64,000 nt of DNA from Eledone cirrhosa (lineage: Eukaryota), in contig OZ024741.1 of assembly GCA_964016885.1 (NCBI GenBank), positions 42,842,001-42,906,000 on the forward strand, given 5' to 3'. This document shows, one piece after another, positions 4,301 to 60,939 of this stretch. Numbering within the stretch: the first letter of the stretch is position 1; every line of letters begins with the position of its first letter. Both the position numbers and the translations under genes were made by a program. The notes under the pieces were generated by a model, which was not told the DNA's origin, did not search any database, and was given only the letters and a program-made list of their open reading frames with translations.

Positions 4301-4344
4301 ATTTTGGTTAGTTTGCTTATTATTATTATTATCGATGTATTTAA

Positions 4345-6688: not shown

Positions 6689-6762
6689 GATATGGTTTTA
6701 TAAATATAGTTTCCATTTATTAATATCGTATATATATATATATATATATAGGAACCAGTAAG

Positions 6763-10108: not shown

Positions 10109-10293
10109 GGTGCGGGTGAAATGAATTGAGCTTAGCGGAAAAGTCTGGATACGGCGTGGTAGGGTCGGAAAGTGCTCTACTACGGGAGTAGGAGCTAGAT
10201 AACGAAGGAAATGTGGTAAGGAACCAGGTGGACCATAACGCACCAAAGTACTCAATACTTGAGGTAGTAGAGTGGGTAATAGGAACCAGTAAG

Positions 10294-10387
10294 ACCCCGA
10301 CAGCTGAGCTCAAGCCGTTTCGACGGCTAATTCTGGACTAAATGAACATTTATCCTGGTATTTAAATAGCCGATCTTCTCAAGGGGT
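10294..10387 (-). ncRNA. Second copy of the U3-A8 hammerhead (upstream pLTR)
   Basis: Same sequence as 6763-6856, 3531 bp away. Confidence 0.85.
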
Positions 10388-12211: not shown

Positions 12212-12387
12212 GAAGATCGGCTATTTAAATACCAGGATAAATGTTCATTTAGTCCAGAATTAGCCGTCGAAACGGCTTGAGCTCAGCTGTCGGGGTCTTA
12301 CTGGTTCCTATTACCCACTCTACTACCTCAAGTATTGAGTACTTTGGTGCGTTATGGTCCACCTGGTTCCTTACCACATTTCCTTCG

Positions 12388-12436
<49 letters not shown>

Positions 12437-14661: not shown

Positions 14662-14883
14662 GCATAGAAATGGACATACTGATACAGATAGATAGACGAC
14701 AGAAAAATAGAAAGGTAGTTAAAAAGAAAGATAGAAATACATACATACATTTCCGTTAATTTGCGTGAGTGCAAATGATATAAAACTTGTACCATATCAT
14801 CGTTAATGTCGGAAATGTATTTGCAAACTGGGCAATTTTATGAAAACTGTAAGGAAACAAATTGAGGTTTTGGTAATAAGCTG

Positions 14884-15138
<255 letters not shown>

Positions 15139-27410: not shown

Positions 27411-27632
27411 TCTATCTATCTCTGGGATGGACACACGCGTATAACTTGCTGAGTAAGTTCTGTTTAAATTTCTATAGAAATTCTTGTCTGATAACTTTAA
27501 ATTTTGTACCATTTTGTAGAGGGACTGCCAGGTCAAACTTTGATCTGGTCAGTCTCTCAAAATATTCTACGCCTTTAGGCGAAATAGTTAAAAAAAAAGT
27601 TTTTTCTTGTTGAAAAGTCAATATTTTTTTAA

Positions 27633-29414
27633 ATGGCCGAAGCTTCTTCACCAAAATTCGAAGGAGGAAAGGGGAAGATGAACTTACAGCTTCCCCCTGC
27701 CACTGTCACAGTAGCAGAGGTCAAGAAGATAGGTCAGCCAGAGGAAGAATTCTCTCCACCTGTTAACCGACAACTTGACGTTACCATGGCAACAACCCAA
27801 AGAACCAACAGCAACAACAACAACAATGCGACGGTAGAAAACAACACCAATAACAATAACAATAACAACAACAAGACCAATAACGGTGACAACAACAACA
27901 ATGATAACAACAACACCACCAACGACAACAACAACACAAACAAACAAAATTTCTCCTTCGCCGAGACGACAAGGAAAACCCTCGACTATCTGCCAGTAGA
28001 TATAACAAAAGCGAAGGAGCTACTGGCGGATGCGAAAAAATATATAGTGTACGGGGAAAATGGTTCATTCACAATCCATTCCCCCCCGGAACTAAAAAGC
28101 CAGAGACTCCTAAACACGGTCATGTTTAGGACAATCTCGAACAAAAGTAAAAAACCAGCTCAACCATCACAGAGCGAGATAGAGCTGGTTTTAAAAGACG
28201 TCATGAAGGACATCACCTTCATTCAGAAGGATAGACTCTACGGGAGTCTATCCATTCTCATGAAGGACAGGGACACAGCAGTGAAACTGTCCATCAAACC
28301 AATCACATCCACCGCATACACCTTCTACCCTACGTACATGGGTAGAAGAACACAAAAAATAAAAATCCACACCATCCTGCCGATTATGGACATATGGTGG
28401 GTTTTGACAGGTCTTCTGGACCTGGAGGATGACATGCTGGTGTCCATGGGAAAGGCATCGGGTGACGCGTTCAGTGGAACGAGCCTCGAACTTGTAGTTC
28501 AAATGAGGCCCGAAAGGATCGCCCAGATCCCTGAACGCGTCATACTGGATGATCTAACCTTCATCAACATTACCGTTGAGGGTAGACGGCCCTCGTGTTA
28601 CCTCTGCGGAACCAGAGGTCACCTGAGGGCTGTCTGTCCCCAACTTAATAAGAAAACCCCAATCCTGCCTACACCACCAACAACTGCACAACCAACACAA
28701 TCACCACAACAACCACTACAAAAACAACCACCACAGCTCAAACCAAAACAAAACAATGTCCAACCCATCCCCTCCACTCAAAAAACAAAAACAATTTCCA
28801 AAACACCCGTACCGCAAACACAACCCGAAAATATACCCCTCCCCTCCAACGCGGAAGATGACCCTAGTTCGTCGTCAGACGAGGAGGAGCACTTCCACAC
28901 AATCAAAAGAAAAAAAAGAAAACACACCTCAGACACACAAATGAAAAAAACCCCTCCCCAAAACATAACACTGACACCAACACAAAAGAGCTCACAACAG
29001 CAAACAAAAAACACCACACAAAAACAAAAACATGCATACACATACATAAATACAAGAAACAAAAAACTGTTAAACATTGTGTACAACAACAATCTAATAA
29101 AAACACAAGGGCCTAACTTCACCCAGGCAGGGGATTTCCCCCACCTCAAAATGATTAAGGCCCCACAGGACACCTATAAAACTTTAAAAAACAATTTTAA
29201 AGAGGACGTGGGTCCCCCCTGCGTCGGGCCCATTAACCGAGTCCTCCTAAAAAACTATCCCACCCCCTCCCCAAACACCCTCACAACTCCAAGCTCCCCA
29301 ACCACACAACACACTGATGTCCCCACACTTCCACAAACCACCACCCCACCCAACAACCCATCCCCCACCCTAATGGAAATTGTGCAGCCCGATACCCGGG
29401 ACGCAGAGAGGTAA
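27633..29414 (+). CDS. LINE ORF1 protein (Asn-rich N-terminus, CCHC zinc knuckle, P/Q/T-rich tail)
   Basis: 593 aa; CYLCGTRGHLRAVC knuckle; aligns by eye with ORF1 of copies 2 and 3 (YP.YMG.R, MWW.L). Confidence 0.9.
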   Translation: MAEASSPKFEGGKGKMNLQLPPATVTVAEVKKIGQPEEEFSPPVNRQLDVTMATTQRTNSNNNNNATVENNTNNNNNNNNKTNNGDNNNNDNNNTTNDNNNTNKQNFSFAETTRKTLDYLPVDITKAKELLADAKKYIVYGENGSFTIHSPPELKSQRLLNTVMFRTISNKSKKPAQPSQSEIELVLKDVMKDITFIQKDRLYGSLSILMKDRDTAVKLSIKPITSTAYTFYPTYMGRRTQKIKIHTILPIMDIWWVLTGLLDLEDDMLVSMGKASGDAFSGTSLELVVQMRPERIAQIPERVILDDLTFINITVEGRRPSCYLCGTRGHLRAVCPQLNKKTPILPTPPTTAQPTQSPQQPLQKQPPQLKPKQNNVQPIPSTQKTKTISKTPVPQTQPENIPLPSNAEDDPSSSSDEEEHFHTIKRKKRKHTSDTQMKKTPPQNITLTPTQKSSQQQTKNTTQKQKHAYTYINTRNKKLLNIVYNNNLIKTQGPNFTQAGDFPHLKMIKAPQDTYKTLKNNFKEDVGPPCVGPINRVLLKNYPTPSPNTLTTPSSPTTQHTDVPTLPQTTTPPNNPSPTLMEIVQPDTRDAER

Positions 29415-29438
29415 GTGCCTTTTCTCTTCACCACCAAC

Positions 29439-32400
29439 ATGGCTATGCTAAGAGTAGGCTGTTTAAATGCGCGTGGCCTGGGCTCAACTTGGAAGCAAGC
29501 AATGCTTCTAAATGACCTCAGGTCACAACGTATAGATGTGATGGTTATTTGCGAGGCCCGGATCAGCAACGTGCGACAGCTGGCCCCCACCTTTGATGAC
29601 TTTGAGATGCACGCATCTCTCTGTCAGCCTGGAGGTGGGGGTGGAGTTGTCGTTCTGCTGCAAAAACATCTGGGTCTCGCAACACAGATGGTACATTTGG
29701 ACCCGGAGGGTCGACTAGTGGTTCTGGACCTTGGCAGTGGTAAAGGCGGAGCGTTTAGGTTGGTAGCCGCCTACGGCCCTTTCGGGTCAATGCGGCCGGA
29801 CTTCTTCCATCGTCTGGAGACTTTTCTAGGGACGTCCCGCTCCTTGCTATTAGTGGGGGACTGGAATGGTATCCTAGATGCACGCTGGGACTACGTAGGG
29901 GCCTGCCCCGATAGAGAGGGGTGTAATAGCCTCAAAGGGTTAATCGGTCGATTTGACCTGGCCGATAGATATCGACTAGATTTTCCGACTGCGCCAACCT
30001 GGACTTGGGCAAATCGTAGCGGATCATCTAGGTCGTACCTAGATAGGTTCTTAGTTAGAATTAAGGATAAGGACTTTTTAAGTTGTCCAAAAATGCGCAT
30101 TGTTGGCTATTCAGACCACAAATTAGTGACCTGCATGGTCAACCTTGACAGAACTCATAGACAGGGCCCCGGTTACTGGAAGCTCAACTTGTCCTTGCCG
30201 GCAAGTAGAGCCTACAGGAATCGGATTAGTACGTTAGTTAAGGAACGGTTGACTGGAGCGATCGTCAACAGCAGGTGGTGGGTATCTCTAAAGAGAGAGA
30301 TTAGAGTAGTCTCGATAGAATTTAGTAAGGGTCTAGCTGCGGATAGGAATAGGAAGGAAAGGGAGCTAATAGATAGAGTAGAAGAGGCAATTAGAAGCGG
30401 CGACGTGGCCAGAGTGCTAGCGTCGAGAACGGCTTTGAGCCAGTTTTTCGACGCGAAGCACGAAGGCTGCGTTGTCCGAAGTAAAATACGTGCTCTAGGG
30501 AACGAGGGGACCAAAGCTGTTAGCTGGGCCCGCGTGACAGAGGCCAACAGTGGAACTAAATCCACCATCCGGTCTTTGCGAGACCTGGATGGACGGGCGA
30601 TTCTTGAGCCTAAGCAGATGTGTGAGGCCTTTCAAAGGCACTTTGCCCGACTGTTCGGGAGGGGCGGGGAGCCGGTTGGGAACGTGGACTTCGGTCCATA
30701 CCTCGACGGCCTGCCGCGCCTCTCGGACAGGGAGGCGAAGTCCTGCGAGGAGCCGATTTCGGCCGCTGAGATAGAGGACGTGCTGAGCCAATGCGGCAAA
30801 CGCAAATCCCCGGGTCTCGATGGTCTTCCTTACGAATTATATCTAGCTATGCCGGACTTGTTCCCCGATCTCCTCGAGGCGGTCTACTGCAACTGGCAAC
30901 AGAACGGGAGAATTCCCTGTACTGTGACCAAGGGCGTAGTCACGCTAGTGAGGAAGGACGAGAACAAGGGGGACGAAATAAGTAACTTCAGGCCCATAAC
31001 ACTGCTAAATACAGAGTTACAGATTTTGGCCAAGGTGCTAGCAAAGAGGTTGGCGCTTGTCGTGGGCAACCTGGTGGGAGATGCGCAGACATGCGCTATC
31101 CCGTCCAGGTCCATCCATGACAACCTCCACCTCATGCGATACATCATAGAGAGGGTTGGGAACGAACCCGGCTTTGGTGGGGCTCTGATCAACTTGGATC
31201 AATCTAAGGCGTTCGATAGGGTCGACCATGGTTACCTGGATGCGGTGCTAGCGGCGGCAGGCTTCGGACCCGTTTTCAGGGGCTGGATCACTGCTATGCA
31301 CAGCAGCCGCATCTGCTCTAGGGTCAAGGTGAACGGCTACCTCTCGGAGCCGTTCAAAATCGCGCGGTCCATCCGACAAGGGTGCCCTCTCTCCTCCCTT
31401 CTGTATGTATTGACTCTCGAGCCACTACTGCGGAAGTTGGAGTTGTTGCAGGGCATCCCTTTGGAACCGGGATTGCGGAAAGCGGTGTCGGCCTACGCCG
31501 ATGACGTGACAGTAATGGTGTCGACGGCCTCCGAAATCGAGGCGGTCGGCACCTTACTGGAGGAGTACGAAAAGTTCACAGGGGCTAAGCTGAACCGGGA
31601 CAAGTCGATCGGTTTGCAACTCGGCACGTGGAGGGGCAGACCGATGCCCTCCGATAGCGTCGTCGGACGCTGGACGGAGGGCCCGGTGAAGTTGCTCGGG
31701 GTCTGGTTCGGACCGGACCTCCAGGTGGAGAAAAACTGGGCGGAGGTTACGAACAGAGTGTTTGCACTGACCCAGAAGTGGGCCAGTTGCAAACTATCCC
31801 TGAAAGGTCGGGCGGAGGTGGCGAACACCTACATAGCGTCCGTCATCTACTACCGCCTGACCGTAGTGCCCTGCCCAAGGGAAACCCTCACCAAGATGGA
31901 GCGCGCGCTCTTCCAATTCCTTTGGAAGAGGCGGGCTCCTATGGTGAGGAGATCCATCTGCTGTCAACACCCTTCGAAAGGAGGGCTGGGGATGCCGTGG
32001 CTAATGATGCGTAAACACGCATTAAGGCTACGGCACCTCTACGTATTCCTCACCGGACAACCGGTGTGGGCCTCGTTTGTGAGACGAACCTTTCCCAGAC
32101 TCGTCTCACTCACCGAGCTGCAATCCTGGGTCAAGCAAAGACCGAGAAAACTGGGCGCCTGGCACACTGAGTGTGCCCAGGCGCTCACCGCCCTCTGGCA
32201 GGCGGATCCGGTTATCAGTGGAGACTCCACCGCAACATTCTATAGAGGGCTGGTACGCAGCAGGTGCGACGACGCCCTCGGAGAAGCCCTAGACATGGAG
32301 GAGGACGAACTGGCCAGCCTTTTCGGTAGGACATTCAGCCCGGGACCTATGGACAACTTCCAGAAGTCCCTGGCCTGGCAGTGCTACCGAGGGGCTTTAC

Positions 32401-32876
32401 CCGTTCGAGAAAGGCTCTACAGACACGGGCGCCCGGGTAGGGACCCCGCCAAAAAGATCTGTCCCAGATGCGTGTGCGACGAGGAAACCGTTGCACACGC
32501 ATTAGTACACTGCTCGGGCGTAGCCGATCTGTGGGGCTATGTCGAACAACTGCTGTCAAGGGTGGGACCGATCCGGTTGACCACCGAGTCTATTGTAATG
32601 ATCAAGCCGCCTCCCCCCTTCAAAGATGAAGCAGAGGCGGTGTTTCTGTGCGTAATAGCCATGGCGAAAGAGGTTGTATGGTGGACGCGTCTGAAAGGAC
32701 TGAGGTCGGGCACCTTTCTCTCTGGCCAACAACTGGTCCGTTTCTTCCGATATCATTTCGGAAGAAGGATCAGGATGGAGAGAGAGGTGCTGCACCCCAG
32801 CCGTTTCTATGAAAGATGGGTGAAAGTGGCGAGAATGGCCCGTGTGAATGGGCCTTCACTCTACATCAGACTATAG
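29439..32876 (+). CDS. LINE ORF2: APE endonuclease + reverse transcriptase + C-terminal Cys motif
   Basis: LNARGL, GDWN, YLDR, SDH (APE); KSPGLDG, NFRPITLLN, DQSKAFDRV, QGCPLS, AYADD (RT); CPRC..ETVAHALVHC. ATG in CCAACATGG at 29439. Confidence 0.96.
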   Translation: MAMLRVGCLNARGLGSTWKQAMLLNDLRSQRIDVMVICEARISNVRQLAPTFDDFEMHASLCQPGGGGGVVVLLQKHLGLATQMVHLDPEGRLVVLDLGSGKGGAFRLVAAYGPFGSMRPDFFHRLETFLGTSRSLLLVGDWNGILDARWDYVGACPDREGCNSLKGLIGRFDLADRYRLDFPTAPTWTWANRSGSSRSYLDRFLVRIKDKDFLSCPKMRIVGYSDHKLVTCMVNLDRTHRQGPGYWKLNLSLPASRAYRNRISTLVKERLTGAIVNSRWWVSLKREIRVVSIEFSKGLAADRNRKERELIDRVEEAIRSGDVARVLASRTALSQFFDAKHEGCVVRSKIRALGNEGTKAVSWARVTEANSGTKSTIRSLRDLDGRAILEPKQMCEAFQRHFARLFGRGGEPVGNVDFGPYLDGLPRLSDREAKSCEEPISAAEIEDVLSQCGKRKSPGLDGLPYELYLAMPDLFPDLLEAVYCNWQQNGRIPCTVTKGVVTLVRKDENKGDEISNFRPITLLNTELQILAKVLAKRLALVVGNLVGDAQTCAIPSRSIHDNLHLMRYIIERVGNEPGFGGALINLDQSKAFDRVDHGYLDAVLAAAGFGPVFRGWITAMHSSRICSRVKVNGYLSEPFKIARSIRQGCPLSSLLYVLTLEPLLRKLELLQGIPLEPGLRKAVSAYADDVTVMVSTASEIEAVGTLLEEYEKFTGAKLNRDKSIGLQLGTWRGRPMPSDSVVGRWTEGPVKLLGVWFGPDLQVEKNWAEVTNRVFALTQKWASCKLSLKGRAEVANTYIASVIYYRLTVVPCPRETLTKMERALFQFLWKRRAPMVRRSICCQHPSKGGLGMPWLMMRKHALRLRHLYVFLTGQPVWASFVRRTFPRLVSLTELQSWVKQRPRKLGAWHTECAQALTALWQADPVISGDSTATFYRGLVRSRCDDALGEALDMEEDELASLFGRTFSPGPMDNFQKSLAWQCYRGALPVRERLYRHGRPGRDPAKKICPRCVCDEETVAHALVHCSGVADLWGYVEQLLSRVGPIRLTTESIVMIKPPPPFKDEAEAVFLCVIAMAKEVVWWTRLKGLRSGTFLSGQQLVRFFRYHFGRRIRMEREVLHPSRFYERWVKVARMARVNGPSLYIRL

Positions 32877-33163
32877 GTGAGGAAGATGAAAGACCAAGGG
32901 AGCACCCCTTCTCTGTGCTCCTGAGGAGAAGGGTTGCACACTTTTTTCGGGGGTGTGTGCGACCCCCCAAGGCGCCTCCTCTCTATTGAGGATTTTGTTA
33001 AAAATTTTATTTTTTGTTATATCTTATTTTATTTTTATATTTTGTTATTGCCTCCTCCTTATTGAGGACGCCTTTTTGTGTAAACTCCCCCCTTTGTACT
33101 TGTCCCACTTTTGATGCCCTAGTGGCAAATAAAAGAAATATATCTATCTATCTATATATATAT

Positions 33164-44585: not shown

Positions 44586-45350
44586 AAAGAAGGAATAATG
44601 TAAGCTGATAATAGTAATGAGGATATATAATTTAATAGTGCAGTGTTGAAATACTTGTTGGAAACTCCGTCCGTTTGAAGAAATGTACTTCAATGTTGAG
44701 TAGGAAATGGAAGAGTAATAGAAATAATGATGAACAGGTACGTGACCTAGTGGTGGAATGTAGCGTGGAACTTAACCAGATTTGATATGTGTTAAACGAG
44801 TGAAAGTACAAATCGCTCTCCCATGTTGACAGGACACTATTGCGTCACACAACGAACCACTTATAATAATTTTCTGTCGTGAGAACTGAAGAAATACAAA
44901 ATTAAGTGCCTAGCTCAAAGATACAACTTATTATCTACCCACGAATGTAGTATAATCATGAGCCCAATACATTTGGCCACGAGCCATTGCATTAATAAAA
45001 GACTACAAGAATAAGCATAATAACCTAGATTTATTTTAAGGTGTTACATTCAAGCATAGTGTTAGAATTGCACATCCACACACTATATATGAACGACTAT
45101 GGACATATACACATATAAATAATGTCACAGGACTTTCACACATAGGAAAAAGTGTAAATATATGAGGATATAAAAATCTGTATGCCTGCTTTTGCAAAGT
45201 TTTATCGAGGCATCATAATAAATGTCATATGAAAATGAAAATGATAAAAACAGTTTAAAAACTACAGGCACTCATTACTACTCTCCATTATATAGTCAAA
45301 ACACGTATTGTAAATAACACTGTAATAATAATAATAATAATAATAATAAT

Positions 45351-48300
45351 GATTTCATTTATTGGCCACAAGGGCCGACATATAGAGGACAATACAACAG
45401 ACTGGGACAGTGGGGTTTTACAGAAAAATCGAGTAAACAATATGAATAACAATAACAAAGTATCAATAACAAAGTAACAATAAAGTAACAATAAAATTAC
45501 AAGAAAAAATTCCCAAATATGAGGGATGACCACCTAGGGTTCGATCAGGTACCCCACCAGTCCTGAACTACCCGACGCTTTGAGAGCACCCTGGAAGGGC
45601 ACCCCTCAAATTTACCTACCTATAGCCGCATGATCAGAGTAGGCCCACTCACACGGGCCATTCTAGCCACATTCACCCACCATTCAGCAAATGTACTGGC
45701 GGGCAGCACTTCTCTCTCCACTCTCACCTTCCTTTCCAAGTGAAACTTGAAAAAGTTGATGAGGGATTGGCCGAAGAGAAAAGTGTCTGTCTTCAATCCT
45801 TTCAACCTCGTCGACCATACAACCTCTTTCGCTACTGCCACCAGACAGAGGAAAATTGCCTGCCCTTCCTGGCCAAAAGAAGGCGGCGGGTCGATTTTCA
45901 CTATGGACTCGGCCGATAGCCGGATCCGTTCTACACGCGACAACAGCTGTTCAACATAACTCCACAAGTCAGTAATGCAGGGACACTGGACGAGTGCGTG
46001 CAGAACGGTTTCGTCGCTCTGTGCGCATCTCGGGCAGGTCCGTCTGACAGCACTTCCGTTCCTGTAGAGTTTATCTCGAACCGGCAGTGCCCCCCGGTAA
46101 CACTGCTAAGCGAGGGATTTTTGAAAATTATCCATCGTCCCCGGCTCAAAAGTCCTCCGGTACAGACTGGTTAGTTCGACTTCGTTGACTCCCAGAGCCT
46201 CTCCGAGTGCGTCGTCGCACTTGCCCACCACTAATCTTCTATAGAACTCGAGAGTGGAAGTTCCACTGACCTCATTGCCCGCTTGGTCGAGGGCAGTGAG
46301 TGCCTGGCAACATTCCAGATGCCAGTCACCCAGTCTCGGTCTCTTCTTGACCCAAGACTGCAGCTCAGTCAAAGAAACGAGCTGCGGAAAGGCCCGTCTG
46401 ACAAACGGCGACCACATCTGTTCACCGTTTAGGCAGAATATCTGGAGACGCCGCAGCCTCAGCGCGTGCCTGCACATCATTAGCCACGGCATGCCCAGCC
46501 CTCCACGTAGAGGGTGCTGGCAGCAGATGGACCGCCTCACCAGCGGAACCTGACCCCTCCACAAAAATTTGAAGAGGAGACGCTCCAAAATGACGAGGCG
46601 CGAACGGGAGCAAGAGACGACGGTCAGACGGTAGTAGATGACGGACGCGATGTACGCGTTCGCCACCTCCGCCCGACCTTTCAGTGATAGCTTCATCCCA
46701 GCCCATTTCTGGGTGAGACTGGCTACCCTGCCCGTCACCTCGTCCCAATTCTTATCCACCTGGAGGTCTGGCTCGAACCAAACCCCTACAACTTTACCAG
46801 TCCGTCCGTCCAGCGCCTAACGACGCTGTTAGACGGCATGGACATGCCTCTCCAGGTGCCGAGTTGCAAGCCCACCGACTTTTCCGGGTTAAGTTTTGCT
46901 CCCGTCAACCTTTCATATTCCTCCAATAAGTTGCCGACCACCTCGATTTCTGAGGTGTCCGACACCATCACTGTGATGTCGTCCGCATAAGCCGACACAG
47001 CCTTTCCGCGTCCCGGTTCGAGCGGGATGCCCTGCAACAGCTCCAGCTTCCGCAGTCATGGCTCGAGAGTCATTACGTACAGAAGGGAGGAGAGAGGGCA
47101 CCCTTGACGGACCGATCGGGAGACCTGAAACGGTTCCGAGAGGTGGCCATTAATTTTGACCATCGAGCAGGTGCCGCTGTGCATTGCAGCGATCCAGCTT
47201 CTGAAGACGGGGCCGAAGCCAGCCGCCTCGAGGACAGCCTCCAGGTACCGATGGTCGACCCTATCGAATGCTTTCGATTTATCTAAATTGATCAGAGCCC
47301 CACCGAAGCCAGGTTTACACCCTACCCTGTCTATGATGTATCGCATTAAGTGGAGGTTGTCGTGTATGGACCTGGTTGGGATTGCGCAAGTTTGCGCCTC
47401 CCCAACCAACTCCCCGACGACAAGCGCCAACCTCTTCGCTAACACCCTGGTTGAGTAGAGTTATGGGCCTGAAATTGTCTAATGTGTCCCTCTTGTTCTC
47501 GTCTTTCCGTATCAGCATCACTACGCCCCGGCTCACAGAACTGGGAATACTCCCGTTTTGCTGCCAGTTGCAGTAGAGAGCTTCGAGGAGATTGGAGAAC
47601 AAGTCTGGCATATTTACGTAAAGCTCGTAGGGCAGACCATCCAAACCGGGTGACTTGTGCCTTATGCAGCTGATAAGGGCATCCTGAATCTCGGCTGAAG
47701 TAATTGGCCTTTCGCAGCGCCCAGCGTCAGCCGTCGAGAGTTGCGGCAAGCCATCGAGGTAGGGACTGAAGTCCGCCACCATCTCTGACCCGCCACCTCC
47801 CCCGAACAACCGAGCAAAATGTTGGCGAAAGGCCTCACACATCCTCTTGGAATCGCTCAGCTCGAGCCCGTCTCGGTTCGTCAAAGACCGAATCGTGGTT
47901 TTATTACCACGCTGCGCCTCTGCCACGCGGGCCCATCGAACAGCTTTGGTTCCCTCGTTTCTCAGAGCACGCGCCTTAGCTCTGACAATGCAACCTTCGT
48001 GTTTCGCATTGAAGAAATGGTCTAATGCCATTCTCGCCGCTAGCACGTCAGTTGCAATACCACTACCAATAGCATCGTCTAACTTATCTTCCAACTCCCC
48101 CTCCTTTCTATTTTTCTCTAACGCTACTTCTTTGCTAAACTCTATCGACATTACTCTAATCTCTCTTTTGAGAGCCCCCCAGCATCTATTGTTGACGACT
48201 CCCCCTGTCAACTTTTTCTTAACTAAATTGTTGACCTGGTCCCTGTAAGCCTTACGTGCCAGAAATGACATGTTTAGCTTCCAGTAACCAGGTCCTAACC

Positions 48301-51186
48301 TACGCGTCTTATCTAGGTCGACCATACAGATCACACACTTGTGATCTGAATAGGCGACCGTTTCAAAACGTGGACAGCTTACACTATTTCTGTCTATTTT
48401 CCTAATTAATATCCTGTCTATATACGATCTAGATGACCCTATGCGGTTAGCCCAGGTCCACACTGGCGCATTAGGGAAATTTAGTCGGTACCTGTCAGAC
48501 AGTTGGAACTGGCTGATCAGGTTCTTGAGGCTTTTGCACCCCCCGCTCCTATCGGATACTCCCACACAGTCCCAGCGTGCGTCTAAGATGCCGTTCCAGT
48601 CCCCCGCTAACAGTAAAGGGCGAGACGTACCCAGAAAGGCATCCAGGCGTCTAAAGAAGTCCGGCCGTCCTGCCCCAGTAGGAGCATAGACGGCCACCAG
48701 TCTAAAGGCACCACCTTCGTTATTGTTCACGTCCAGGACCACCAACTTCCTCCGGTTCCCGGAAGATCGACCTTACCTCGAGATCCAGGCCTTTCCTAAA
48801 CAGCACTGCCACCCCGCCTCCCATTCCCGGCCGGCTAACAGATGCAAAGATCTGATACTTGTTCAAAATGGGGGCTAGTGCGCGCGTGTCGGAAATCCTG
48901 GTATCGTTGACGGCAATTACATCCATTTCTATAAACCTGAGGTCGTTGAGCAGGTGACCCTGCTTCCAGGACGATCCCAGGCCTCGAACATTTAAACATC
49001 CTACTCTTAATACGGCCATGTTGGCAGGTTAAAAGGAGAGAGGGGAAGGTTTACTTACCTTCCGGGCTCTTGTGAAGGTCGGGTTGTTTGACCACCATAG
49101 TTGGTGGGGTTTCTTTTGGGAACCCTTTTAAAAGTCTTGAAGTGGGTTTTACGTTCGGGGTTCCCACGTCCCGAGGAAAGCTGTCTCGTATTTCTTTGAA
49201 TATATCGAGCGACATTCGCACCAGAATCAAATCTTCCGGCACGCGAAATGTGCTCGATTTAAAAATTTTCCCCTCTTTTTGTATATTTTCACTTCGTGCT
49301 ACGAGGGCCATCACTTCCTTGTTGGCCCTCCTGACGAGCACGAAGTTTTGTAAGTTTTCTTGGTGTGATTTTATTGTTTGCGTGGTTGTGGTGGTGATGG
49401 TTTTGGTGGTGTTGTTTCGGTTGTATCTGTGTTTGTTGTGAGTGTGGTGTCTGTGGTTTCAGATGTTTGTGTGTATATTTGTTCTTGCGTCTGTTTAGGT
49501 TGTTTGCGTTTAGGGGATTCTGGTGATGGTGATGGTGGTGTTGATGTTGGTGTTATTGGAGAGATGTTTGCGTGGGTGGTCTCTGCGTTTTTTTATTGTG
49601 GGTGATTTTTGTGCTTTGGTGATTTTGGTAGATGAGGGGACTGTGTCTGTAAGTGTGTCTGTATGTATGTTTATGGTTTTATTGGTGTGTGTATTTTTGG
49701 GGGGAGGCGGAATTTGACAGCTTTCCTCGTTTCCCCCCCTGGGTGGTCAATGCTGGTGGTGGTCTTTCTATTGGTGTTGTTGGTGGTTTTTCCGGTGCTG
49801 GAGTTGGTTGTGGGCCTCGCCCCGGCGTCGGCAGCAGTGGAGCCTTCCGACCCTTACCTCTTTCAGCAGTTGAGGGAAGAAGGCTCGCAAATGGGATTTT
49901 TCCCCACAAAGAAAACACTGCGGCCTTTTGCCTTCGGTCATAATGTTAATGACCGTCCCATACTAAAGGCGGATGTGGTCCGGGATTGTCTTCACATTCT
50001 CGAGCCTCATCTGGAGAAGGATCTCCAGGTCAACCCCGGACCAGTCCTCTCTGGCCGTTCTGGTCACTTCTATAGGGACGGTATCCGTCCCCTCCACAAT
50101 CACACATCCCAGAAGCCACCACATGTCAAGTCCTGGTGGGATTCTGGGAATGCGGAGACGGGCCGTTCTTTTTCCCATGTGGGAGGGGTACATTATGACC
50201 TTGCTGGTTTTGCACTGAGTCATAGCGTGTTTCATAGCGAGGGCTTCTGACTTGAACAACACCGAAATGGTGCCGTACTGTCTGCCCCTCTCTATGTATT
50301 CGGTGTCTTCTCTGATGCACCTCAGCGCGACTTCGACATCTGCTTGTGGGATTAAAGCTGCCCTTTTGGTTTGTGCTGAGATGCATCTATAATGCACCGT
50401 TCTGCGCCCCACTGCCTCAATAGCTTCTAGCGGGACAGTTAAGTTGGCCCAGGTTTGCTCTTGCTTGATGAGCTTCCATACCTGGGCCAACTTTTCATCT
50501 TTATTTGAGAGGTTCATGTTGAAGCATGGCCTCTTTTTTGCTGCTGCCGCAGCGAAGGTGTTCTTCTTATTTTCGTTGGGGGTGTTGTTGTCGTTGTCGT
50601 TGTTCTTGTTGGTTTTGTTGTTATCACTTTCGCTGTTATCATTGTTGTCTTTGTTGCCACCGTTGTTCTCGGTGCAGTTGGTATTGTTGGTATTGGTGTT
50701 GTCGCTATTTGTTTTCATGTTAGTGGTGTTGATATTGTTATTGATTTGTCATTTTTTTTTGTTATCTGTATTTTCGTTGTCGCTGTTACTGTCATGTTTT
50801 TCAAAATTAGAGTTCTCATTGGTATCATTGGTGTCTTTGTTTACATTGTTTGTGGTGGTGTTTGTGTTATAAATTTGTGTTAATTTCGCTGTAGCGCTCC
50901 TCTCAACTTCCACGTCGTTGTTGCACGACAGCAGAAATATAGCTGGGGTGGGGGTGGGGTGAATGGGGGGGGGGCTCAGCCGTGTTTCTTTTTTCTCCGT
51001 AAATGTTTTAACATGTAAACAAAATTCAAATATTTGGGCCAAAAGGCCCAAATATACTTTCCCCTTCACAGGGCAATGTCTAAGGGCTTATATCCCTTAC
51101 ACAACAAGAAATATTTAACAACAAATAATGTTTACAGGCAAATAAAGCGACTTACTGGGAGCGAGCAAAATACGTCCGCTTAGACC
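45351..51186 (-). mobile_element. Full-length L1/Tx1-type LINE, copy 2 (ORF1 and ORF2 broken by frameshifts and stops)
   Basis: ORF2 pieces 45620-49019 closely match copy 3; ORF1 pieces 49051-50970; (TAA)n at both ends; AATAAA before the tail. Confidence 0.94.
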
Positions 51187-54582: not shown

Positions 54583-54856
54583 TAATAACAATAATAATAA
54601 TAATGATTTCATTTATTGGCCACAAGGGCCGACATATAGGGGACAACACAATAGACAGGGACAGTGGGGGTTTACATAGAGATCGAGTAAGTATAAATAA
54701 CAAAATACAAAATAACAATAAAAATACAACAATGAAAGTTCCCCAATAAGAGGGATCACCACCCAGGGTTGACTCAAGCACCCCACCAGTCCTGAGCCAC
54801 CCGACGCTCCTAGGGCACCCGGGAAGGGCACCCCTCTCCTTCTCGAATTCACCAGC

Positions 54857-57800
54857 CTACAGGCGCATGATCAGAGTAGGCCCACTCACGCGGGCCATTC
54901 TCGCCACATTCACCCACCTTTCAGTAAATGTACTGGGGGGCAGCACTTCTCTCTCCACCCTGACCTTCCTTTCCAAGTGAAACTTGAAGAAGTTGATGAG
55001 GGATTGGCCGAAGAGAAAAGTGTCTGTCTTCAGTCCTTTCAACCTGGTCCACCATGCAACCTCTTTCGCTACTGCCACCAGGCAGAGGAAAATTGCCTGC
55101 CCTTCCTGGCCAAAAGAAGGCGGCGGGTCAATCTTCACTATGGACTCGGACGATAGCCGGATCCGTTCTACACGCGACAATAGCTGTTCGACATAACCCC
55201 ACAAGTCAGCAATGCACGGACACTGGACGAGTGCGTGCAGAACGGTTTCGTCGCTCTGCGCGCATCTCGGGCAGGTTCGTCTGACAGCACTTCCGTGCCT
55301 GTAGAGTTTATCCCGAACCGGCAGCGCCCCCCGGTAGCACTGCCAAGCGAGGGATTTCTGGAAGTTATCCATCGTCCCCGGCTCGAAAGTCCTCCGGAAC
55401 ATACTGGTCACTTCTACTTCGTTGACGCCCAGAGCCTCTCCTAGTACGTCATTGCACTTGCCCTCCACTAATCCTCTATAGAAATCTTGAGTGGAAGTTC
55501 CACTGACCGCATTGCCCACCTTGCAGAGTGCAGTGAGCGCCTGGCAACATTCCAGATGCCAGTCGCCCAGTCTCGGTCTCTTCTTGACCCAGGACTGCAG
55601 CTCAGTCAAAGAGATGAGCTGCGGAAAGGCCCGTCTAACAAACGGCGACCACACCTGTTCACCGTTTAGGCAAAATATCTGGAGATGTCGCAGCCTCAGC
55701 GCATGTCTGCGCATCATTAGCCACGGCATGCACAGCCCTCCACGAAGAGGGTGCTGGCAGCAGATGGACCGCCTCACCAACGGGACCCGTCCCCTCCACA
55801 AAAATTTGAAAAGGAGCCGTTCCAAATTGGCGAGGCGTGGACGGGGGCAAGGCACGACGGTCAGGCGGTAGTAGATGACGGACGCGATGTACGCGTTCGC
55901 CACCTCCGCCCGCCCTTTCAGTGATAGCTTTCTCTCAGCCCATTTCTGGGTGAGGTTGGCTATCCTGCTCGTCACCTCGTCCCAATTCTTATCCACCTGG
56001 AGGTCTGGTCCGAACCAAACCCCGAGCAACTTTACCGGTCCGTCTGTCCAGCGCCCAACGACGCTGTTGGACGGCATGGACTTGCCTCTCCAGGTGCTGA
56101 GCTGCAAGCCCACCGACTTTTCCGGGTTAAGTTTTGCTCCCGTCAACCTTTCATATTCCTCCAAATGGGTGCGGATCACCTCGATTTCCGAGGTGTCCGA
56201 CACCATCACGGTGATGTCGTCCGCATAAGCGGACGCAGCCTTTCTACGTCCCGGTTCGAGCGGGATGCCCTTCAACAACTCCAGCTTCCGCAGTAGAGGC
56301 TCAAGAGTCAATACGTACAGAAGTGAGGAGAGAGGGCACCCTTGACGGACCGATCGAGAGATCTGAAACGGTTCCGAGAGGTGGCCATTAACTTTGACCA
56401 CCGAGCAGATGCCGCTGTACATTGCAGCGATCCAGCTTCTGAAGACGGGGCCGAAGCCAGCCGCCTCGAGGACAGCCTCCAAGTACCGATGGTCGACCCT
56501 ATCGAATGCTTTCGATTGATCTAAATTGATCAGAGCCCCACCGAAGCCAGGTTTGCACCCAACCCTCTCTATGATGTATCGCATGAGGTGGAGGTTGTCG
56601 TGTATGGACCTGGTCGGGATTGCGCAAGTTTGCGCCTCCCCAACCAAATCTTTGACGACAAGCGCCAACCTTTTCGCTAACACCTTGGCCAAAATCTTAA
56701 ACTCTGTGTTGAGCAGGGTTATGGGCCTGAAATTATCTAGTGTGTCCCTCTTGTTCTCGTCTTTCCTTATCAGCGTCACTACGCCACGGCTCACAGAACT
56801 GGGAATGCTCCCGTTCTGCTGCCAGTTGCAGTAGAGCGCTTCGAGGAGATCGGAGAACAAGTCTGGCATATTTACGTAAAGCTCGTAGGGCAGACCATCC
56901 AAACCGGGTGACTTGCGACTCGAGCAGCCGACAAGGGCGTCCTGAATTTCTACTGATGTTATCGGCTCTTCGCAGCGCTCAGCGTCGGCCGTCGAGAGGC
57001 GTGGCAAGCCGTCGAGGTAGGGACTGAAGTCCGCCGCCGTCTCCGACTCACCCATCCTCCCGAACAATCGAGCAAAGTGCTGGCGAAATGCCTCACACAT
57101 CTGCTTGGAATCGCTCAGTTCGTGTCCATCTCGATCCGTCAAAGACTGAATTGTGGTTTTATTTCCACGCTGCGTCTCTGCAAAGCGAGCCCATCGGGCA
57201 GCTTTGGTTCCCTCGTTCCTCAGAGCACGCGCCTTAGCTCTGACAATGCAACCTTCGTGTTTCGCATTGAAGAAATGGTCTAGTGCCATTCTCGCCGCTA
57301 GCACGTCTGTTGCAATGCCACTACAAATAGCCTCGTCTAACTTAGCTATCAGCCCCTCCTCCTTTCTATTTTTCTCTATTGCTACTTCTTTGCTAAATCC
57401 TATCGAGGTTGCTCTAATCTCTCTTTTGAGTGCCCCCCACCACCTGTTGTTGACAACCCCCCCTGTCAACTTTTGCTTAACTAAGTTGTTGACCCGGTCC
57501 CTGTAAGCTTTACGTGCCGGAAACGACATGTTTAGCTTCCAGTAGCTAGGTCCTAACCTACGTGTCTTATCTAGGTCGACCATACAGATCACAAGCTTGT
57601 GATCTGAATAGGCAACCGTTTTAAAATGTGGACATCCTACACTATTTCTATCTCTTTTCCTAATGAAAATCCTATCTATGTACGATCTAGATGACCCTAT
57701 GCGATTGGTCCAGGTCCATACTGGCGCATTAGGGAAATCTAGTCGGTACCTGTCAGACAGTTGAAACTGGCTGATCAGGTACTTGAGGCTTTTGCACCCC

Positions 57801-58276
57801 CCGCTCCTATCAGATACTCCCACACAATCCCAGCGTGCTTCTAAGATGTCATTCCAATCCCCTATTAACAGTAAAGGGCGAGACGTAAGCAGAAAGTTTT
57901 CCAGGCGCCTAAAGAAGTCCGGCCGACCGGCCCCAGTAGGGGCGTAGACGGCCACCAGTCTAAAGGCACCACCTTCGCTATTGCTCACGTCCAGGACCAC
58001 CAACTTTCCGTCAGGATCCCGGAAGATTGACCTTACCTCGAGATCCAGACATTTCCTAAACAGCACAGCCACTCCACCTCCCATTCCCGGCCGACTAACA
58101 GATGCAAAGATCTGATAATCGTCGAAAATCGGCGCCAGTGCGCGTGTGTCGGAAATTCTGGTCTCGCTGATGGCAATTACATCCATTCCTAGTGACCTGA
58201 GGTCGTTGAGCAAGTGACCTTGCTTCCAGGGCGACCCCAGGCCACGAACATTTAAACTTCCTACTCTTATGGCCAT
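54857..58276 (-). CDS. LINE ORF2 APE-RT, 1139 aa
   Basis: All APE/RT motifs present (GDWN, SDH, QGCPLS, AYADD); several conserved Gly residues substituted relative to copy 1. Confidence 0.95.
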   Translation of the reverse strand: MAIRVGSLNVRGLGSPWKQGHLLNDLRSLGMDVIAISETRISDTRALAPIFDDYQIFASVSRPGMGGGVAVLFRKCLDLEVRSIFRDPDGKLVVLDVSNSEGGAFRLVAVYAPTGAGRPDFFRRLENFLLTSRPLLLIGDWNDILEARWDCVGVSDRSGGCKSLKYLISQFQLSDRYRLDFPNAPVWTWTNRIGSSRSYIDRIFIRKRDRNSVGCPHFKTVAYSDHKLVICMVDLDKTRRLGPSYWKLNMSFPARKAYRDRVNNLVKQKLTGGVVNNRWWGALKREIRATSIGFSKEVAIEKNRKEEGLIAKLDEAICSGIATDVLAARMALDHFFNAKHEGCIVRAKARALRNEGTKAARWARFAETQRGNKTTIQSLTDRDGHELSDSKQMCEAFRQHFARLFGRMGESETAADFSPYLDGLPRLSTADAERCEEPITSVEIQDALVGCSSRKSPGLDGLPYELYVNMPDLFSDLLEALYCNWQQNGSIPSSVSRGVVTLIRKDENKRDTLDNFRPITLLNTEFKILAKVLAKRLALVVKDLVGEAQTCAIPTRSIHDNLHLMRYIIERVGCKPGFGGALINLDQSKAFDRVDHRYLEAVLEAAGFGPVFRSWIAAMYSGICSVVKVNGHLSEPFQISRSVRQGCPLSSLLYVLTLEPLLRKLELLKGIPLEPGRRKAASAYADDITVMVSDTSEIEVIRTHLEEYERLTGAKLNPEKSVGLQLSTWRGKSMPSNSVVGRWTDGPVKLLGVWFGPDLQVDKNWDEVTSRIANLTQKWAERKLSLKGRAEVANAYIASVIYYRLTVVPCPRPRLANLERLLFKFLWRGRVPLVRRSICCQHPLRGGLCMPWLMMRRHALRLRHLQIFCLNGEQVWSPFVRRAFPQLISLTELQSWVKKRPRLGDWHLECCQALTALCKVGNAVSGTSTQDFYRGLVEGKCNDVLGEALGVNEVEVTSMFRRTFEPGTMDNFQKSLAWQCYRGALPVRDKLYRHGSAVRRTCPRCAQSDETVLHALVQCPCIADLWGYVEQLLSRVERIRLSSESIVKIDPPPSFGQEGQAIFLCLVAVAKEVAWWTRLKGLKTDTFLFGQSLINFFKFHLERKVRVEREVLPPSTFTERWVNVARMARVSGPTLIMRL

Positions 58277-58305
58277 GCTGGCAGGATGAATGGGAGAGGA
58301 AAGGT

Positions 58306-60214
58306 TTACTTACCTTCCGGGGTCTTGTGAAGGTCGGGTGGTTCGACCTCCATGGTTTGTGGGGTTTCTTTTGGGAACCCCTTTAATAGTCTTGACGTGG
58401 GTTTTACGTTCGGGGTTCCCACATCCCGAGGAAAGCTCTTTCGAATTTCTTTGTATGAAGCGAGCGACATTCGCATCAGAAGCAAATTATCTGGTACGCG
58501 AAATGTGCTCGCTTCAAATGTTTCCCCGTCTTTTTCGATGTTTGTGCTTCGTGCTACATGGGCCATCAATTCCTTGTTGGCCCTTCTGGCAAGCACGAAG
58601 TTTTTAATGTTTTGTTGCTCGGGTTTTATTTGTTCGTGTGATTGTGGTGGTGATAGCTTTGTTAGTGTTGTTTCTATTGTGTCTGCGTTTGTTGTGGGTG
58701 GGGTGTCTGTAGTTTCTGATGTTTGTGTGTCTATTTGTTCTTGTGTCTGTTTAGCTTGTTTGCGTTTGGGGGATTTTGGTGGTTGTGTTGGTGATGCTGT
58801 GGGGAAAATGTTTGTGTGGGTGGTGTGTGTATTTTTTTTTGTGGGGGTGTTTGTGCTTTGTGGATTTCTTTTTTTTTTGTGTTTTGTTTTTTGTATTTTG
58901 GGGGACTTTGGTTTTCCCTCATCTTCACTGCTGGAGGATGAGGGGTCTGTGGCTGTGAGCGTGTTTGTGTCTGAGTGAGTGTTTATGTTCTTGTTCGTGT
59001 GTGTATTTTGGGGGGGAGGGGGAATGGGAGAGCTTTCCTCGTTTCCCCCCTGGGTGTGCAATTTTGGTGGTTCCATTGTTGACGGTGTTGCTGGTGGTCC
59101 TTGTCCCGGCGTCGCCAGCAGTGGAATCTTTCGACCCCTTGCGCTTTTCGGCAGTTGAGGGCAGAAGGCTCGCAAGTGTGTCGTTTCCCCACAAAGGAAA
59201 CAATGCGGCCTTTTGCCCTCAGTCATTATATGCAACACCCTCCCGTTTTGGAGGCGGATGTGGTCCGGGATTGCTTTTACGTTTTCGGGTCTGATTTGGA
59301 GCAGTATCTCCAGATCAACCCCGGACCAGTCGTCCCTGGCAGTTCTCGTTGCCTCTACCGGGACTGTATCCGTTCCTTCCACGATTACGCAACCCAGGAG
59401 CCACCACATATCAAGTCCTGGTGGAATCCTGGGAATGCGCACACGTGCTATTCGTTTTCCCATGTGGGAGGGGTACATTATAACCTTGCTGGTTTTGCAA
59501 GGGGTCATTGAATGCTTCACAGCGAGGGCTTCAGACTTGAACAGCACCAAAACGGTGCCGTATTGCCTGCCCCTCTCTATGAAGTCTGTGTCCTCTCTGA
59601 TGTATTTCAGTGCGGCTTCTATATCAGCTTGGGCGATTATCGCTGCCCTCTTTGTCTCTACTGAGATGCATCTGAAATGCACCGTTCTTTTTTCCACTGC
59701 CTCAATGGCTTCTGCCGGGACAGTTAAGTTTGCCCAGGTCTGCTCTTGATTTATGATTTTCCAGGCCTGGGCCAACTTTTCCTCTCTGTTGGTTAAGTCG
59801 ATGCTGTAGCATGGTCTCCTTTTAGCCGCTGCCACAGCAGCGAAGGTGTTCTTGTTGGTGTTGTCACTGTTGTTGTTCTTGTTGGTGTTGCTGCTGCTAT
59901 TGCTGTTGTTGTTCTCCCCTGTGTCGTTCTCCCTCTGTGCTGTTGGCCTTGTTGGTGCTGTTGCTGTCGCTACTATTACTCTCTGTGCTGTTCGTTTTGT
60001 TGGTGCTCTCGCTATTACCACCTTCTGCGCTGTTCGGCTTGTTGGTGTTGGTGTTGTCGCTGTTACCACCTTCCGCGCCGCTCGGCCCGTTGGTGCTGGC
60101 ACTGTCGCTGCTCACATTCGTGCTGGTGGCGCTCCTCGCCTCACCTCTCCTCTCAACGCTCAAGTCGCCGTTGCACGACAGCAGACCCGCCTCTAGGGGG
60201 CGTGGCTCCGCCAT
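58306..60214 (-). pseudogene. LINE ORF1 with a single frameshift near 59930
   Basis: The likely start MAEPRPLEAGLLSCNGD (60214) matches copy 2 LLSCNND; the CFLCGETTHLRAFC knuckle is in the 58306-60102 frame. Confidence 0.85.
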
Positions 60215-60939
60215 GTTTTTTTGAGAAAAAAATTATTTTTTTTTTTTTTCAAAATAAAGTTCAAATATTTGGGCCAAAAGGCCCAAATATTATGAGTTAT
60301 TCCTTCACAGGATACAAATTAATGTCTTATAATGCTTCAGCGGTACAAAAAATAAACAATTCTCTACAATTAATCCTCAAAAAATTGCTTACTCACGGAG
60401 CTTCAAAAAACGTACATCCACTTTCGTCAATAATAATAATAATAGCAACAACAACAGCAGCAGCAGAAGTAGTAGTAGTAGTAGTAGTTCTAGTAGTAGT
60501 AGTAGTAGTAGTAGTAGTTCTAGTAGTAGTAGTAGTAGTAGTTCTAGTAGTAGTAGTAGTAGTAGTAGTAGTAACACTGGAAATAATATTGAACTTCATA
60601 TCTTTAACTCTCTTTAACCTTTATTTCCCTTCAACATTCCCCAGTATCAAGAATGCAACAGTAAAAGTAAAAACTACAAACAACGCAATACTTTCAATTT
60701 CGACATGAAACTTAACCACTCCTTACAATGACAGGAAGCACATACTTTGTTTGTTTCACCGAAGTAACTATATTACCAAGAACGTGGTGTGTATGAAATA
60801 TTGGCACCAAACTAATGATTTAGTTTCACATTCCATTCCATAGTATTCATGTGGAAGATCACTTCAGTTATCATCATCATTATCAACATCATCATTGTTA
60901 TCATTATTATTATGATTATTATTATGATTTGTGACATAC

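Follow-up and report, generated by a model that had tools for sequence, protein, structure and literature searches.

The element and its copies

The window (the whole stretch of 64,000 nucleotides that was analysed) holds three copies of a Tx1-like LINE, whose features are as follows.

27422..33140, forward strand: copy 1, full-length Tx1-like LINE of family A1, both ORFs open
27453..27519, forward strand: 5'UTR intron-like unit of 67 nt with GTAAGT, T-rich body, branch-like pentamer, pyrimidines and TAG; candidate intron
27633..29414, forward strand: ORF1, 593 aa, with conserved central domain, CCHC knuckle, conserved C-terminal domain and P/T-rich tail
29408..29416, forward strand: 5' splice-site motif, junction 29410/29411, in ORF1 phase 2 and overlapping the ORF1 stop
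29417..29438, forward strand: pyrimidine-rich inter-ORF spacer; the distance from donor to ORF2 start is 25-47 nt across families
29439..32876, forward strand: ORF2, 1145 aa, with APE endonuclease, RT and zf-RVT, wholly within the proposed intron
32852..32869, forward strand: preferred candidate acceptor, a pyrimidine tract and CAG, rank 5 of 263 AGs; splicing here would leave ORF1 reading in frame into the final ORF2 codon and its stop
32874..32876, forward strand: second candidate acceptor, the ORF2 TAG, rank 16 of 263; would give a protein identical to unspliced ORF1p
32877..33140, forward strand: 3'UTR with purine-rich start, GC hairpins, T-rich stretch and poly(A) signal at 33128-33133
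45350..51186, reverse strand: copy 2, family B, degraded; 5'UTR donor at 51155, ORF1-end donor at 49058 (phase 1), ORF2 TAG at 45620-45622
54604..60428, reverse strand: copy 3, family B; 5'UTR donor at 60396, ORF1-end donor at 58313 (phase 1), ORF2 TAG at 54857-54859

Both ORFs are broken in copy 2, while copy 3 has an open ORF2 (58276-54857) and an ORF1 (about 60214-58306) with a single frameshift near its start. The element is placed among the L1/Tx1 LINEs by its ORF2, which carries an APE endonuclease at the N-terminus, an RT and a zinc finger at the C-terminus, and ORF1 is a separate reading frame with an invariant CCHC knuckle as nucleic-acid-binding motif. Exo_endo_phos and RVT_1 score above the Pfam cut-off, zf-RVT does so in copy 3 but not in copy 1, and the best PDB match of ORF2 is human L1 ORF2p (E 4e-48). 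No match came from a Pfam search of copy 1 ORF1, nor from searches of the 90% protein set with the ORF1 C-terminus. In a quick RT tree, built with no mammalian L1, the octopod and ENA proteins, grouped together at 100, join the Tx1 group with an SH-aLRT of 90, below the mark of 95. Like Tx1-clade LINEs (Xenopus Tx1, P0113), the element combines an APE-RT-zinc-finger ORF2 and a CCHC ORF1 with simple-repeat targets and tails; Kibi and Koshi are microsatellite-targeting members of that clade. The 5' flanks and tails are (ATT)n in families B, D and F and (ATCT)n/(GTCT)n in A, E, G and H, copy 1 lies in an (ATCT)n/(TA)n repeat, and family C insertions come after a minisatellite.

The 3.0-Gb octopod genome holds 13,769 RT-motif hits of this clade, and the ORF1-end 19-mer of copy 1 is common to 1,475 genome copies, a count that takes in the sister family A2. 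The Tx1-like LINE is young, abundant and highly successful in octopod genomes, and L1-Tx1 is listed as active in Octopus vulgaris (PMC13282606). A search for families more distant than those sampled found none. The region 32830-33135 folds with z = -2.74. The Octopus sinensis model XP_036364761.1 has a tail of the purine-rich type, like the start of the family F 3'UTR, and no close family for it was found in the searched genome (best 38%; six loci checked were of D type).

The donor motif at the end of ORF1

A reading of the window from its letters (the sequence-only reading) had described a perfect donor at the ORF1 end of all three copies, which was reproduced, with the register differing between phase 2 in copy 1 and phase 1 in copies 2 and 3. 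It had counted these copies as about two independent lineages; the conservation spans far more than two. Of 69 ORF1/ORF2 borders sampled, 65 have exact G/GTRRGT, and every one of the 11 family groups is represented, as are ORF1 phases 0, 1 and 2. Among families that differ at 40-50% of fourfold sites, positions -1, +1, +5 and +6 are invariant and only A-to-G at +3/+4, which is U1-compatible, recurs. Scored with an approximate matrix against the 260-307 GT sites of each family representative, the donor comes first or shares first place in all 11. In 56,536 nt from the rest of the elements its 7-mer turns up 16 times, which is about 0.03 times per 90 nt, and the motif is present in one and lacking in 49 of 50 distant L1-type outgroup elements. 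Conservation independent of reading frame strongly supports a function as donor, and what appears to be under selection is a consensus 5' splice site of the kind expected for a U2-type intron.

If the motif instead arose as a by-product, either of the ORF1 stop or of the way translation of ORF2 is coupled to it, the spliceosome would have no role. The stop codon does supply positions +2 to +4 in phase 2, the spacer is short and pyrimidine-rich, and a family E ORF2 that starts without AUG makes coupling signals plausible. In phases 1 and 0, however, the motif does not form the stop and yet persists; positions -1, +1, +5 and +6 do not change between families; its variation follows the pattern of U1 pairing; and a like motif stands in the 5'UTR. 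In family E the donor lies 12 codons upstream of the ORF1 stop, and from this position and the occurrence of the donor in all phases it follows that neither coding nor the stop explains the motif. A by-product is very improbable.

Distant ORF1 proteins, for which the comparison is of protein sequence only, end in Gly-Lys-stop or Gly-Arg-stop in 3 of 19 hits, and an Argonauta ORF1 protein ends in Gly-Lys-Ser-stop. Such ends are the encoding expected from a phase-1 donor.

The second intron-like unit, in the 5'UTR, measures 50-95 nt across copies and is retained in 48 of 48 copies checked. In families E, G2 and H its branch and AG signals go beyond those of shuffled sequences (0, 1 and 4 of 200 as good), whereas family C has no YAG behind the motif and 125 of 200 shuffles are as good. 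The 5'UTR motif is mostly without an exonic AG. Complete donor-branch-AG units in the 5'UTR were counted in favour of splicing, and their retention in all 48 copies against it.

Candidate acceptors and the restored stop

When the donor is joined in silico to the end of ORF2, introns of 3466 nt (29411-32876), 3439 nt (49058-45620) and 3457 nt (58313-54857) are removed and the stop returns at the same codon in each of the three copies, as the sequence-only reading had it; its alternative AG at 32869 in copy 1 also ends cleanly. Its statement that all ORF2s end in TAG followed by G is correct for the three window copies but not for the clade, since family F and some B and G copies have A or T after the TAG, and family D ends in TAA. 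This is just the kind of related family that had been named as evidence against the proposal, and it is large: family D makes up 21 of 80 sampled loci, and its ORF2 stop is TAA in 18 of 18 sampled ends, with the donor kept.

Consider then where a stop is met downstream of the junction. Within three codons past the ORF2 TAG, a stop is found in the native phase of the donor in 13 of 17 subfamily groups and in 6 of 34 cases for the other phases (label-permutation p 0.001), where the 17 groups and the three-codon threshold were chosen after seeing the data and the groups are not independent, with perhaps 4-5 independent events among them. With the first non-GAG AG as acceptor, the numbers are 15 of 17 and 12 of 34 (p 0.008).

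For copy 1 and its sisters, the TAG scores lower than a CAG 7 nt before it, and in copy 1 it is unlikely to be the acceptor of choice. Families B, F, H and E have no AG at -7 but a phase-matched stop after TAG, while A2, L094/L270 and phase-2 G have no matched stop but an AG at -7, a distribution that suggests compensation. The letters after TAG vary in B (five variants) and F (three variants) with the phase-1 stop kept; it is lost in one F copy (L252) and in single copies elsewhere. Eight of 11 representatives have an AG at 0 or -7 that stands at rank 1-13 among about 260, and acceptor ranks are good in 9 of 11 families.

In family F the TAG ranks 60 of 267, and in phase-1 G a better-scoring CAG would add 44-45 codons. 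As acceptors family D offers only a GAG at -13, ranked 191-226, an AAG at +7, which would mostly add 64-76 codons, or a strong 3'UTR CAG, which would add 19; it also keeps a phase-1 stop, for which splicing would find no use. The set of branch point, pyrimidine tract and YAG at the ORF2 end is good in A, C, E, G and H and weak in B and F, and D lacks it there; across the families compared, no branch point is both clean and conserved. Synonymous constraint in the last 15 ORF2 codons is unexceptional (0.74 against 0.64; rank 227 of 1,125 windows). The acceptor is less secure than the donor.

If the donor were spliced mainly to other acceptors, be they internal ORF2 sites, the 3'UTR CAG of D or downstream host exons, ORF1 mRNAs would still be made, and their tails would vary. 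In 10 of 11 representatives there are internal AGs that score above the terminal ones, some of them at homologous positions; the top acceptor of family D is in its 3'UTR, and the ORF1p tail is a low-complexity, variable sequence. This account would leave the terminal phase matching without an explanation, nor could any retrocopy be confirmed in which the donor is joined to another site, and we regard it as improbable. Two other arrangements were rejected. A short intron fusing ORF1 to ORF2 would have only the 25-47 nt before the ORF2 start, in which AGs are not conserved, and the frame of ORF2 with respect to the donor is not constant. An acceptor for ORF2 alone, ahead of its AUG, is present in G and some B but absent in A, C and D.

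The search for spliced copies and a proposed two-RNA scheme

ORF1-only retrocopies lacking exactly the proposed interval, which the sequence-only reading had suggested seeking, were not found among thousands of copies. The counts were 0 of 21 deviant copies in family A (against 1,475 normal), 0 of 308 in C, 0 of 8 hits in B, 0 of 2 in G/I/J, none in E, none in D (nor among the 100 of 114 listed) and 0 against 2,358 with a wide pattern. These searches cover A, B, C, D, E and G/I/J other than phase-1 G, and within them neither precise intron loss, as in SpIREs, nor ORF1-only copies, as in HAL1, were found; the family F search is at chance level (1,210 against 1,141). Five candidates (L032, L033, L044, L272, L273) are unspliced point variants, and L275, 24 nt of a family D ORF1 end that stops at the donor, lies inside an RTE-like repeat with collinear flanks and was not counted as a spliced chimera. 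Spliced RNA would keep the 3'UTR, yet no spliced retrocopies were found. When assembled contigs from four runs of unrecorded type were compared with 27960-33135, the predicted joint was not among the 15 joints listed, beside which there are 129 more. Summed contig depth across the donor falls in run X4 and rises in X1; contig depth cannot rank gene parts, and with the run type unrecorded neither trend was taken as evidence.

Absence of spliced copies also fits a scheme in which the two motifs serve U1 as landing pads and no splicing takes place. They would then block premature cleavage and polyadenylation in the A-rich ORF1 and aid transcription, and the ORF2-end features would be inherited coincidences. 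The donor is much better conserved than any acceptor and is kept in family D without TAG, a poly(A) hexamer stands 313-345 nt upstream of it in 8 of 12 representatives (ORF1s hold 0-7), the 5'UTR motif mostly lacks exonic AG and, in family C, the YAG, and U1 has the same role in EVD (PMC5580714). ORF2, downstream of the donor, has just 0-2 hexamers, however, and U1 pads leave unexplained the phase matching and the compensatory pattern at -7, as well as the branch and AG signals in the 5'UTR units of E, G2 and H. Pads without splicing we hold to be unlikely, though the leading alternative; EVD uses both, so that the two roles are not exclusive (PMC5580714).

The reading we favour, as somewhat more probable than not, is that copia-like alternative splicing gives an ORF1-only mRNA while unspliced RNA retrotransposes. 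One transcript would give two RNAs. U1 snRNP would bind the strong, conserved donor motif at the ORF1 end, and in part of the transcripts the spliceosome would join it to a moderate acceptor at the ORF2 end, removing about 3.46 kb; the acceptor would be the CAG 7 nt before the end of the stop in A/C/G/I/J/K and the TAG itself in B/F/H/E. The product would be an ORF1-only mRNA of about 2.25 kb with its stop in the last exon and a short 3'UTR, and the reading frames put its predicted protein end within 0-3 codons of the normal one. ORF2p would come from the intron-retaining 5.7-kb RNA, probably through termination-reinitiation. Cis preference would make this RNA the sole template for new genomic copies, and that would be why they keep the intron. 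Removal of all of ORF2, as originally proposed, is partly supported: the conserved donor and, indirectly, the phase match and the acceptors that rank well in 9 of 11 families speak for it, and the TAA of family D, the low standing of the TAG as acceptor in copy 1 and the missing ORF1-only retrocopies against it.

The 5'UTR unit may, on weaker grounds, leave in the same mRNA class. A fuller, retrovirus-like programme, where mRNA spliced free of both the 5'UTR mini-intron and ORF2 makes ORF1p, intron-retaining RNA serves ORF2p and retrotransposition, and the acceptor has evolved together with the phase of the donor, across several frameshifts and from a time before the Argonauta lineage branched off, is possible but more tentative.

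In Drosophila copia, splicing reportedly yields gag mRNA. The plant Ty1/copia elements EVD (PMC5580714) and BARE1 (PMC3735527) make a spliced shGAG RNA. The likeness to EVD, here predicted from sequence, would lie in a strong conserved donor, a weaker acceptor, a splice that gives structural-protein mRNA and unspliced RNA that gives the enzymes; those elements differ in being one-ORF LTR elements with a short intron coupled to premature polyadenylation (PMC5580714). The octopod LINE has two ORFs, its whole 3.4-kb ORF2 is the candidate intron, and the normal poly(A) site would be used. Penelope-like elements retain spliceosomal introns in their copies, but belong to another class (GIY-YIG endonuclease), and their intron does not enclose the enzyme gene.

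Human L1, another L1-clade RNA with donors and acceptors (functional there, predicted here), some of them in the 5'UTR, is spliced in SpIREs (PMC5860796) and SpORF2 (PMC2896524) so that 5'UTR or ORF1 is lost, events described as inhibitory dead ends that leave genomic copies (PMC5860796). In the parts of these sources consulted, no L1 splice removes ORF2 while restoring the ORF1 stop, and the octopod case differs further in signals that look selected and in that no spliced copies were found. The open-access main texts searched likewise yielded no such arrangement for L1/Tx1 elements, as had been supposed; the main text of PMC13282606 does not mention splicing, nor do the Tx1-clade passages searched describe a splice arrangement. 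HAL1 elements have ORF1 without ORF2. Such half-L1s are separate genomic elements (PMC8535693), and octopod ORF1-only copies were sought and not found.

By analogy with Gag over Pol in Ty1/copia, the effect of splicing would be an excess of ORF1p over ORF2p, and a function in setting this stoichiometry may be suggested on that ground. The excess in LINEs is usually explained by inefficient reinitiation. If the fuller programme is true, the octopod element would be the first LINE to carry its enzyme gene as an intron that is under selection and regulated. Use of splicing by a LINE for the ORF1p:ORF2p balance would be a convergence with copia and retroviruses. Host splicing factors would have direct on/off control of a young and highly successful octopod element, and ORF1 reads as a measure of activity in cephalopod RNA-seq would need another interpretation. 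Even if the motifs were U1 pads, a LINE with a pair of conserved U1 sites would represent a new, testable cis-acting design.

Families and genomic setting

The three copies in the window belong to the non-LTR retrotransposons; their ORF2 has an APE-RT-zinc-finger architecture, and its best solved relative is human L1 ORF2p. Copy 1 (27422-33140, +) is intact, copy 2 is degraded and copy 3 has a single early ORF1 frameshift. Among named relatives, the nearest come from Argonauta hians for ORF2 (63%) and from Octopus species for ORF1, and on this basis the host is regarded as an octopod. In a quick tree only, the clade is joined to Xenopus Tx1 at an SH-aLRT of 90, below the 95 mark, and the Argonauta ORF2 is placed with family D (support 94), so that the families may predate the split from the Argonauta lineage. 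The RT motif occurs 13,769 times in the 3.0-Gb genome, and the 40 best genomic matches to the ORF1/ORF2 border of copy 1 are about 100% identical, from which follows that its family is young.

A first sample of 80 loci, out of the first 100 listed RT-motif matches, covers the first 24 Mb of contig C1 and is not random, since the 20 omitted matches were mostly of the copy-1 type; a second holds 52 further loci picked for diversity. Together with the copies in the window they fall into 11 groups (A1, A2, B, C, D1, D2, E, F, G1, G2 and H), beyond which subfamilies I, J, K and F2 occur. Distant groups have 63-72% of ORF2 residues in common and only 50-59% of fourfold sites. At L090, L094, L122 and L125, 5'UTR/ORF1 parts are exchanged between families, with B-type 5'UTRs on D2 and F bodies and A1-type on G1.

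Head-to-tail arrays with 5.5-7 kb spacing, single-family or mixed, are found on C1 (4.22-4.26, 17.00-17.02 and 21.47-21.49 Mb, and others); they arise as new copies integrate into the simple-repeat tails left by older ones. Family C copies stand behind a ~47-nt minisatellite and, among the matches listed, cluster towards contig ends or in few blocks; their target differs from that of sister families. The window further contains:

1648-6736 and 6748-12394: long inverted repeat (~2.4-kb arms, 94%) and 1.9-kb direct repeat (99.9%), with an enclosed 784-codon ORF that gave no match in a Pfam search
51765-54077, 14866-16352 and 61186-61849 (+): RT-bearing LINE remnants and one decayed fragment of the Tx1-like clade

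The donor at the end of ORF1

The sequence-only reading placed ORF2 in an intron reaching from the ORF1 stop to the ORF2 stop, and its coordinates and in-silico joins are correct for all three copies. When 14 5'-truncated elements are subtracted from 83, the donor motif is present in 66 of the remaining 69, and in the exact form G/GTRRGT in 65 of 69; the three elements without the motif are one deletion, one point change and one truncated copy.

Position of the donor in the ORF1 reading frame
Phase 2: A, C, D, H, I, J, K and part of G
Phase 1: B, F and part of G2
Phase 0: E, 12 codons upstream of the stop

Family-level changes are confined to A-to-G at +3 or +4, where U1 tolerates G. By an approximate matrix, the donor ranks first among 260-307 GT sites in nine of 11 representatives and joint first in two. 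Among 50 distantly related L1-type elements from metagenomes (24-43% identity), only one has the motif 45 nt or less from the ORF1 stop. At the protein level, three of 19 distant ORF1 matches terminate in Gly-Lys-stop or Gly-Arg-stop, and that of Argonauta in Gly-Lys-Ser-stop; such ends are what a phase-1 donor would encode. The donor is secure, and selection very probably acts on a U1-type site at the end of ORF1. Families D and F have a second consensus donor ~310 nt into ORF2, within the endonuclease codons; in D2 and F its score equals that of the donor at the ORF1 end.

Wherever the 5' end of a family could be reached, a donor-like hexamer occurs 29-98 nt into the element. Behind it come a T-rich stretch, in many cases a pentamer resembling a branch point, and an AG ~60-67 nt further on:

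27453-27519 (+): intron-like unit of copy 1, by sequence features

The 5'UTRs are of about four dissimilar types, yet the unit is common to all these families and present in 48 of 48 sampled copies with a recognisable 5'UTR (46 with the motif, two point-changed). Against 200 dinucleotide shuffles, with A1 and L094 outside the scoring, it does well in E, G2 and H (0, 1 and 4 shuffles as good) and modestly in A2, B-c3 and F (11-13), and does not stand out in B-c2 (47), D2 (51) and C (125).

The proposed acceptor at the end of ORF2

That ORF2 always ends in TAG holds for the window copies and nine of 11 groups, and fails in D1 and D2, which have TAA at 18 of 18 ends. A, C, G, I, J and K have a CAG, replaced in G1 by AAG, at -7 relative to the stop's end; it immediately follows a pyrimidine tract and is in frame for phase-2 donors. 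In copy 1 this CAG, previously regarded as the alternative to TAG, ranks 5 and TAG 16 of 263; since it scores higher, CAG is the likelier acceptor there.

Rank of the best terminal acceptor
E 1; C 2; G2 2; A2 3; A1 5; H 8; G1 10; B 13
Poor: F 60; D 34-46

AGs inside ORF2 outrank terminal ones in 10 of 11 representatives, and the last 15 ORF2 codons show ordinary synonymous conservation (rank 227 of 1,125). In 17 groups, stops at most three codons past the acceptor were counted in the donor's native phase and in the other phases. The native phase has such a stop in 13/17 groups against 6/34 other phases when TAG is the acceptor, in 15/17 against 12/34 for the first non-GAG AG, and in 17/17 against 14/34 for any AG up to 15 nt away (permutation p 0.001-0.008), which is suggestive only, because the groups are related and were defined post hoc. 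The distribution looks compensatory: where the -7 AG is absent, a phase-matched stop follows TAG, and lineages in which this stop has been lost carry the -7 AG. Family D agrees with the phase rule solely via a GAG, and its best-scoring candidate acceptor is a 3'UTR CAG that would add 19 codons; in phase-1 G, CAG would lengthen ORF1 by 44-45 codons. These two families, like the higher-scoring internal AGs and the ordinary synonymous conservation, count against an acceptor at the ORF2 end.

GC-rich hairpins at 32897-32990 and in homologous 3'UTRs, with arms changing jointly between families, are a possible ORF2p recognition signal.

Splicing or U1 binding alone

The motifs, their conservation and their reading frames are direct observations. 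A splice that removes ORF2 stands at roughly even odds. U1 would bind the donor, which would be joined to one of the acceptors at the ORF2 end, and unspliced RNA would be copied preferentially in cis, leaving ORF1p in excess. Splicing would rid the mRNA of a 3.7-kb pseudo-3'UTR, and its stop would still lie in the last exon, so that by the general rules of NMD its stability should be favoured.

The chief rival is that U1 binds without splicing. It has a precedent in the Arabidopsis copia element EVD, in passages of PMC5580714, and is to some extent supported by the poly(A) hexamers that eight of 12 representatives carry 313-345 nt upstream of the donor; the two processes can coexist. ORF1-only retrocopies, proposed earlier as a check on splicing, did not appear in any search. 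In family A all 21 deviant matches are unspliced, against 1,475 normal ones; spliced copies number 0 among 8 matches in B (matches, not the family total) and 0 of 308 in C, with none among the matches listed for D and none in a genome search for G/I/J. A wide pattern gave 0 spliced against 2,358 unspliced; in an in-silico control it recovers 12/13 C, 8/9 E and 2/3 A2 elements, and zero of A1, G2, H, B and F. These results limit spliced copies to well below 1 in 1,000. RNA lacking ORF2 depends on mobilization in trans, an inefficient process in L1, and the missing copies therefore weaken the splice model without excluding it.

At locus L275 (271-294), 24 nt identical to the D2 ORF1 end, stopping at the donor, replace 9 nt of an RTE-like repeat copy, in one of 85 copies among the matches listed; a template switch or a cDNA patch are candidates. 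A spliced form may have been annotated in the Octopus sinensis ORF1 gene model XP_036364761.1, whose final residues are like the beginning of the family F 3'UTR. In family E (L073, L077, L084, L088, L089, L105, L108, L109, L117 and L118) ORF2 is open for ~1,157 codons; AUG is missing at the usual start and ATA overlaps the ORF1 stop in 10 of 10 copies, which suggests AUG-independent reinitiation.

If ORF2 is removed by splicing, the mechanism would parallel shGAG splicing in plant copia elements, although the LINE does not belong to copia. In human L1 the segments spliced out are the 5'UTR or ORF1, according to passages of PMC5860796 and PMC2896524. No LINE whose ORF2 forms a selected intron was found described in the open-access literature, supplements aside, in agreement with the sequence-only reading, which knew of none for L1/Tx1. 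The element itself is an ordinary Tx1-like one, and its splice-signal design is unusual and well conserved.
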